Of a DNA stretch of 64,000 nt, positions 37,351-37,378 are shown piece after piece (positions within the stretch are counted from its first letter, which is position 1; every line of letters starts with the position of its first letter). The notes under the pieces were generated by a model, which saw only the letters and a program-made list of their open reading frames with translations, was not told the origin of the DNA and did no database searches. Position numbers and translations under genes: made by a program. The stretch spans positions 31,024 to 95,023 of the forward strand of contig VMGF01000003.1 in the NCBI GenBank assembly GCA_007376445.1. Reading direction: 5' to 3'. The stretch is from Parcubacteria group bacterium Gr01-1014_3 (lineage in GTDB: Bacteria > Patescibacteriota > Minisyncoccia > UBA6257 > WO2-44-18).

Positions 37351-37378
37351 TAGCCACTATCACATGTGATAGTGGCTA
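37351..37378. promoter_or_regulatory. 28-bp perfect palindrome TAGCCACTATCACATGTGATAGTGGCTA overlapping the sigma factor stop codon
   Basis: Same core palindrome at 55016-55047 and 55558-55585. Confidence 0.7.

Follow-up and report, generated by a model that had tools for sequence, protein, structure and literature searches.

Perfect palindromes on both sides of a TrpR-like gene in a Parcubacteria group bacterium, probable operators of a new CPR TrpR subfamily

Perfect palindromes of about 30 bp that recur at distant places in a small stretch of DNA raise the question of what they are for and of which protein, if any, recognizes them. Here, we analyse such a family in a contiguous stretch of 64,000 nucleotides (the window) from Parcubacteria group bacterium Gr01-1014_3. 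A preliminary description had listed three palindromes with a shared 22-bp core, one at the stop codon of a sigma factor gene and two around a helix-turn-helix (HTH) gene, and had proposed that they are operators. The core, CCACTATCACATGTGATAGTGG, has exactly three exact matches in the window, at 37354-37375, 55021-55042 and 55561-55582, just where they had been placed, and the surrounding perfect palindromes measure 28 bp (copy 1, TAGCCACTATCACATGTGATAGTGGCTA, 37351..37378), 32 bp (copy 2, CCACCCCACTATCACATGTGATAGTGGGGTGG, 55016..55047) and 28 bp (copy 3, CAGCCACTATCACATGTGATAGTGGCTG, 55558..55585) as had been stated, all given without strand. That such lengths exceed chance is borne out by shuffled sequence, in which 100 shuffles gave no match to the core even with up to three mismatches allowed. 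The count of three, however, stands for the exact core only, since a repeat search and a relaxed pattern revealed an overlooked fourth, intragenic member, GCACTATCACGCGTGATAGTGC at 22627..22648 (copy 4, likewise without strand), with 9-bp half-sites identical to those of copies 1-3 and GC at the centre instead. The half-site CACTATCAC occurs eight times in the window, where 0.11 occurrences are expected, and all eight belong to the four sites; the 20-bp unit of the family is CACTATCAC-N2-GTGATAGTG. As RNA the palindromes form hairpins with folding energies between -20 and -29 kcal/mol and z-scores between -5 and -6.4 (copy 1: -20.4 kcal/mol, z -6.4), and no Rfam match was found at the sites. 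A T-run follows copy 1; copies 2, 3 and 4 have none. The window also carries AT-rich AATTTTCAATTTT-type repeats, both direct and inverted, at 6109-6237, 28979-29100, 35843-35951, 44048-44194, 46807-46878, 47370-47517 and 50203-50306, with arms of up to 114 nt at 77% complementarity.

Copies 2 and 3 do bracket the HTH gene (55065..55544, + strand), whose 159-aa product with a TrpR fold is proposed here as the binder of the palindromes. Copy 3 starts 13 nt past its stop codon, and copy 2 is located between divergent promoters, upstream of both neighbouring genes. The promoter-like site of the HTH gene, ATCACA-16-TATAAT (55026..55053, + strand), has its -35 and spacer inside copy 2 and a TG at 55045-55046, and the extended element TGgTATAAT (55045-55053) comes directly after copy 2, in agreement with the earlier reading of a palindrome laid over the -35 and spacer of a TATAAT promoter. 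As the ATG at 55065 follows only 11 nt after the -10, the HTH mRNA would be nearly leaderless. On the other side, the promoter-like site TTGACA-17-TAACAT (54981..55009, - strand), with a -35 that begins 22 nt away from the copy 2 centre, precedes a divergent gene for a 189-aa predicted membrane protein (54348..54917, - strand). Searches of Pfam and NCBIfam gave no family match for this protein, and no counterpart of its gene adjoins the HTH homologues compared.

The 159-aa protein scores 45.5 bits against the Pfam family Trp_repressor (PF01371; gathering score 27) over residues 21-99, and a profile of its 30-member family matches the TrpR-like PDB entries 3kor (E 4e-8), 3g1c and 3frw. Its AlphaFold model is confident for residues 5-91 (pLDDT 75-88), a part which superimposes on TrpR with a TM of about 0.65, and the top 40 Foldseek matches of the model in the PDB are all TrpR or TrpR-like, with an rmsd of 2.0-2.5 Å over some 80 residues. 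The protein nevertheless stays below the NCBIfam cut-offs for both TIGR01321 (TrpR; 31 bits vs 67.25) and TIGR02531 (YerC/YecD; 27 vs 42.2) and is therefore assigned to a separate subfamily. Its C-terminal region of about 60 aa, in which the motifs NYKSYRKFYGGP and NPPRPxGIGL occur, is conserved in the family and poorly modelled. Among 1.84 billion representatives searched with the profile, 25 clusters reached E <= 1e-30 and 157 reached E <= 1e-10, so that the family is a modest and distinct TrpR subfamily. In Pfam and NCBIfam only TrpR-type and HTH-type matches were obtained, and neither HUH/Y1 nor any other catalytic domain was among them; in this protein and the adjacent 189-aa ORF, the two that were scanned, there was no match to a recombinase, transposase or nuclease, and phage and plasmid collections held no match to the HTH protein.

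The 20-bp motif CACTATCAC-NN-GTGATAGTG is rare, with no more than 16 matching loci in 185,579 reference genomes, where by our own estimate (596 Gb and 18 fixed bases) about nine would be expected by chance. These matches consist of chance-level singletons and of a few related CPR genomes at about four copies each, including a related MAG in which two of four copies flank a 144-aa HTH homologue. A metagenome scan yielded 44 loci, mostly on CPR-like contigs with the GC-centre variant. As we read the ORF maps, many of the solo copies in metagenomic contigs are placed where two genes converge or within ORFs of unrelated function. A generic REP element, for which the preliminary description had looked to hundreds of copies, is ruled out by the genome and metagenome scans and by the half-site counts in the window with its four copies. 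The Clostridium palindrome CACTATCACCGGTGATAGTG, 425 nt upstream of a yerC-like gene, was considered as cross-phylum support for an operator and rejected, since it has the look of an ordinary A-run/T-run terminator and such singletons occur in near chance number.

The association of palindrome and gene is strict. Family palindromes are found on both sides of the HTH gene in 11 of 11 diverged homologues examined (39-74% identity), which are those of the window, L072, L008, L020, L058, L017, L062, L063, L065, L067 and L075; L072, L062, L063/64, L065/66, L067/68 and L075 were picked by protein similarity and not by motif. The first downstream copy is within about 20 nt of the HTH stop codon in 10 of the 11 lineages. 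Where promoters were read, a -10 hexamer is placed beside the upstream copy, as TGnTATAAT in the window, L072 and L008 and as a plain -10 in L065 and L075, and L072 shares the TGn plus -10 and the spacing of the window promoter. Whole arrays flank the gene in L063 (7 sites, 3817-5020) and L065 (10 sites, 3780-3985 and 4605-4905), those of L065 being built of tandem units of about 51 bp, each a palindrome with the degenerate -10-like sequence GGGTTAGAAG. In all sites of the set CTATC...GATAG is unchanged and the A/T beside it almost so, whereas drift is seen at the outer and innermost positions. The HTH genes of the window and L072 have 78% DNA identity, their 22-bp cores 100%, and the left edge of the upstream palindrome is exactly where homology of the two loci sets in. 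Lineages with CAC and with CAT inner half-sites have the same recognition helix, so that this comparison does not demonstrate co-variation of protein and site. The earlier proposal that copy 2 is an autoregulatory operator is well supported in silico by the TrpR-fold HTH, by the same palindrome family beside all homologues examined and by the -10 that follows the upstream copy where promoters were read.

Copy 1 is located at the 3' end of the gene for a small sigma-70 family factor with regions 2 and 4 (37360..37965, - strand), of which region 4 is complete by residue 192. The ORF ends ...DSHYHM, its last residues and the TGA being supplied by copy 1 as originally described. On the - strand copy 1 is terminator-like, with a 14-bp stem and a T-rich tail; it is followed by TTTTTATTAC and then by the -35 of the next gene, whose promoter-like site TTGACC-17-TAATAT with TG (37312..37340, - strand) is conserved in the lineages L073 and L074. 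That gene encodes a 212-aa predicted membrane protein (36645..37283, - strand) and has a strong AGGAGG upstream. The supposed tie between palindrome and sigma gene holds in so far as a palindrome is present at the 3' end of the sigma orthologue in both of these lineages (69% identity in L073, 58% in L074). The overlap with the stop codon is not conserved, however: the L073 palindrome TAGTCACTATCCCATGGGATAGTGACTA provides the sigma tail SHYPMG*, close to the ending that had been suggested as a check on orthologues, whereas the L074 palindrome AAAGCCGCTATCACGCGTGATAGCGGCTTT is outside the ORF, 10 nt past the stop codon. In each lineage a T-run and then TTGAC.-17-TAATAT come after the palindrome, and in L074 the gene after palindrome and promoter is again an orthologue of the 212-aa protein (51% identity), the membrane protein downstream of the sigma-side site measuring 210-212 aa. 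The L073 site also displays a symmetric substitution, CACTATCCC..GGGATAGTG.

The gene order around the sigma-side site is apt-S16-KH-trmD-sigma-site-membrane gene-L10. The locus retains eight-gene synteny at 58% identity, and the recombination link once suggested for the sigma factor finds no support, as no sign of recombination was seen at its gene. Strict helical phasing of copy 1 against the -35 was considered and discarded, for the distance from centre to -35 is 24, 23 and 19 nt across the three lineages and is thus not fixed. What is conserved is a hairpin with a T-run that immediately precedes the next gene's -35; since this is kept where the stop-codon overlap is not, the site reads as a terminator and a promoter-proximal site and not as acting on the sigma protein. 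No homology was found between the membrane proteins adjoining copies 1 and 2. Elsewhere in this gene cluster, between S16 and apt, there is a 32-nt inverted repeat (40967-40998/41038-41069; 91% complementary, 39-nt spacer) with no Rfam match at the gathering threshold.

Copy 4 lies within a ComEC-type metallo-beta-lactamase (MBL) gene (21876..22796, - strand; database start 22754), where it encodes STITRDSA, in the linker that connects the N-terminal hydrophobic segment to the catalytic domain. The position is the same in the orthologues of L070 (GTACTATCACGCGTGATAGCGC) and L069 (CACTACCCCGCGGGGTAGTG), which are 72-73% identical, and a more distant orthologue retains only AGCCGCGGCT. In L069 the symmetric substitution CACTACCCC..GGGGTAGTG leaves a palindrome that is still perfect after two mirrored changes, at the cost of three altered amino acids. 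The site adds no length to the gene by comparison with 19 homologues, nor does the family palindrome in a SpoU-type methyltransferase gene by comparison with the L037 orthologue, and a length-adding insertion of a MITE or a Rickettsia-type palindromic element was rejected for both genes. Being held at the same positions in relatives and kept palindromic through mirrored substitutions, copies 1 and 4 appear to be conserved functional elements rather than recent insertions.

Solo copies within unrelated ORFs (SpoU-type methyltransferase, MiaA, ComEC-MBL) are in frame and are always read as TITRDS. At the SpoU position, L021 has the family palindrome (11590-11615), and the 59%-identical SpoU orthologue of L037 has a different, imperfect 32-bp palindrome, CTGTCCCATTGTACGATCGCATAATAGGACAG (300-345, - strand). 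L011 contains at 2760-2797 a 36-bp perfect palindrome, CTCATCAACACTATCACGCGTGATAGTGTTGATGAG, in frame in a gene that by our own identification appears to be MiaA-like; it encodes the 12 residues LINTITRDSVDE, in a loop which we take to be some 11-12 residues longer than that of E. coli MiaA. ComEC itself is split in the window into two overlapping genes on the - strand, with the Competence domain at 22720..24153 and the MBL domain from 22754 or 22796; the L070 genes have the same 35-nt overlap, and the homologues commonly include stand-alone MBL genes of about 285-295 aa.

The perfection and the length of the arms require an explanation of their own. Among 58 distinct CPR-type sites, 16 extend the 20-bp core by at least 4 complementary bases and 11 by at least 6, against means of 1.2 and 0.25 in flank permutations, and the extension of those 16 reaches 4-10 bp past any plausible TrpR footprint. 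In an alignment of 49 sites the arms covary with a score of 0.279, compared with 0.157 in shuffles, none of which reached the observed value in 500, and with 0.12-0.16 in slid controls. The clamps at the upstream copy are compensatory, CCACC/GGTGG in the window and GCACG/CGTGC in L072, and both versions keep the TG of the extended -10. Neighbouring copies also have inverted central dinucleotides (CA vs TG in L065, GT vs AC in L075). Published signatures of template switching at inverted repeats are arm homogenization, arm expansion and spacer inversion (PMC8604942, PMC13100816, PMC7202029). We take hairpin-templated strand switching, by which inverted repeats are homogenized and lengthened, as the most economical cause of the perfect and extended arms, and selection for terminator hairpins probably adds to their perfection at some sites, where a T-run follows. 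The likeness to template-switched inverted repeats comprises perfect arms of variable length and inverted central dinucleotides, yet that literature describes a mutational process and not a function, and here the process would be acting on sites with an invariant core.

The surroundings of copy 3 record a further event. A repeat search identified a 94-bp duplication of the 3' end of dnaE, of which the left copy (54218..54311, + strand) is the functional gene end and the displaced second copy (55580..55673, + strand) is 79% identical, still reads ENKVLVVSGKMSWRNGEQKLICNSAVEI* and is in frame like the first, with most of the differences silent or conservative. This second end starts at the outer edge of copy 3, with which it shares a TGGC microhomology, and it keeps the only proper + strand terminator of the locus (55671-55698). 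Since both the duplicate end and the terminator are retained beyond copy 3, the 1362-bp block at 54218-55579 looks inserted. It runs from the new dnaE end through the 189-aa gene, copy 2 and the HTH gene to copy 3, and its dnaE end, of foreign origin, would have replaced the resident one. In our judgement the scar fits a homology-anchored illegitimate recombination that ended at the hairpin. The neighbours of the HTH gene differ in every lineage, even between the window and L072 at 74% protein identity, and in an empty-site comparison the neighbours of the other cassettes were not encoded in the window, nor those of the window present at the other loci. One HTH homologue occurs on four contigs, each time in the same context. 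The L067/L068 locus (2968-5799) has its palindrome-HTH-palindrome unit between separate genes for a 5'-3' exonuclease and DNA_pol_A, which are usually joined in one polA gene. Downstream of the window's dnaE locus, a 138-aa ORF between thrS and gatB has a weak paralogue about 2.5 kb away, with 34% identity over 87 aa (58134-58550 and 60853-61110).

The palindromes are, in our view, probably the cognate operator family of the 159-aa TrpR-fold protein, which would represent a new CPR subfamily of TrpR. Their co-occurrence with the gene, their geometry, their conservation and their symmetric substitutions are direct observations, and from these we infer that the protein binds, in which direction it regulates and what copies 1, 3 and 4 do. 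A TrpR-like dimer would bind the 20-bp unit. At copy 2, which covers the -35 and spacer of the TG-extended promoter, binding should repress the HTH gene, the dimer occluding the gene's own promoter in autorepression, and the divergent 189-aa gene may be influenced as well. A second site could be provided by copy 3, which might loop with copy 2 or form a boundary or roadblock. The hairpin and T-run of copy 1 would end transcription of the sigma gene, and the site would also be centred about 60 bp upstream of the transcription start of the 212-aa membrane-protein gene. Copy 4 would be an intragenic comEC-MBL site maintained in relatives, possibly as a roadblock.

Some features count against an operator model. 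Classical operators are usually imperfect, and perfect sites with arms that run past the plausible footprint are not classical operator behaviour, and the same applies to the duplicated dnaE 3' end that adjoins copy 3; neither has a site right after the regulator's own stop codon a standard regulatory rationale. Because many solo metagenomic copies are found between convergent genes or in unrelated ORFs, no coherent regulon emerges. The TITRDS solo copies, the different palindrome at the SpoU position and the copies between convergent genes are left unexplained by the model.

In another reading, repressor binding is not all that the hairpins do. Together with the palindromes that bracket it, the TrpR-like gene could be a self-contained unit, either a relocating cassette that seeds solo palindromes or a set of parS/matS-like landmarks with the protein as organizer, and we give this a small but not negligible chance. 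Somewhat less probable still is the narrower proposal that the palindromes are the boundaries of a small relocating cassette and act as recombination or break-and-join sites, the solo copies being left-overs or seeds; protein binding would be compatible with it. The dnaE scar, which is the main support for a moving cassette, suggests relocation by hairpin-mediated breakage and joining, for the diverged 3' duplicate begins precisely where copy 3 ends on its outer side and shares its TGGC, but the scar may equally be a one-off homology-anchored illegitimate recombination, and no palindrome is present at the left end of the inserted block. That the neighbours of the HTH gene change at 74% protein identity while the sigma synteny holds at 58%, that the HTH gene region (55000-55600) has 36-39% GC amid flanking genes of 47-50%, and that the L067/L068 unit is seated between the exonuclease and DNA_pol_A genes all speak for mobility. 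Against this, the domain scans of the HTH protein and the 189-aa ORF detected no recombinase, transposase or nuclease, the protein is without phage or plasmid matches, the homologue on four contigs never changes its context, and copies 1 and 4 keep their positions from lineage to lineage.

A mobile short palindromic element of the REP/REPIN or MITE kind, with the TrpR-like gene as a dedicated partner in the manner of a RAYT, would account for a single-copy gene flanked by palindromes that occur elsewhere too, for the in-frame copies in unrelated ORFs that are always TITRDS, and for the 12-residue palindrome in a MiaA loop presumably longer than that of E. coli. We consider it distinctly improbable, with only about four copies per 64 kb or per MAG, with no length added at the comEC-MBL and SpoU sites, with orthologously conserved positions and with no HUH/Y1 or other catalytic domain detected in the protein. 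The least credence goes to plain strong hairpins, serving as intrinsic terminators or mRNA 3' stabilizers unrelated to the HTH protein. Such a role would suit the T-run after copy 1 and its orthologues, the folding energies, the covariation of the arms and, by our reading of the ORF maps, the many metagenomic copies between convergent genes. It leaves unexplained, however, why CTATC...GATAG is invariant and the core near-invariant in the face of at least 22% divergence of the gene DNA, and why the hairpins associate strictly with one gene family; moreover, copy 2 is upstream of both its neighbouring genes, and copies 2, 3 and 4 lack a T-run.

The operator reading has its closest precedents within the TrpR family of regulators. 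TrpR-family proteins bind 20-bp palindromes, and the TrpR/trp and HisR (YerC)/his operators resemble the present case in combining a dimeric TrpR-fold HTH, a 20-bp palindrome and a site over the own promoter (PMC9413887). The HisR consensus cacTTTAnnnnnnTAAAgtg also has the outer CAC...GTG in common with the palindrome family. The present protein differs from TrpR and HisR in being under the NCBIfam cut-offs and in its extra conserved C-terminal region, and its sites differ in the half-site core CTATCA, in flanking the gene on either side in every lineage, some of which have arrays of 7-10, and in being intragenic in part; no tryptophan or histidine genes are nearby. The likeness to REP/RAYT systems (REPINs) lies in a single gene flanked by a short palindrome that recurs elsewhere in the genome. 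RAYTs are HUH/Y1 transposases, however, and REPs are imperfect, extragenic and present in tens to hundreds of copies, whereas here a TrpR-like HTH goes with about four perfect copies, some inside genes at conserved positions. The parS/ParB and matS/MatP systems have a handful of palindromic sites per genome bound by a small dedicated protein, and they share with the present family few conserved palindromic sites, some in coding regions, and a candidate binder encoded next to a site; unlike these, the protein has no ParB or MatP family match in Pfam or NCBIfam, and no gene for a partner ATPase adjoins its own. Copy 1 and its orthologues resemble intrinsic terminators in having a GC-containing stem and then a T-run at the gene end, yet the sequence of the stem is conserved between loci and lineages.

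What is new here is thus a TrpR subfamily together with its site, of unusual architecture and within a known kind of system. To our knowledge, as limited to one narrow literature search, there is no CPR transcription factor with a defined binding site. A cassette that moves or a set of chromosome landmarks would, if true, be of much greater interest. The bracketing of the gene on both sides, the perfection kept within ORFs through symmetric double substitutions and the extended arms are unusual for operators, and the family offers a natural case of hairpin-templated mutation shaping binding sites. The positionally conserved candidate targets are the regulator's own gene, the membrane-protein gene beside the small sigma factor and the ComEC nuclease-domain gene. 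With a TrpR-subfamily protein that can be paired with an exact 20-bp site, a testable regulon may come within reach in organisms that are unculturable.
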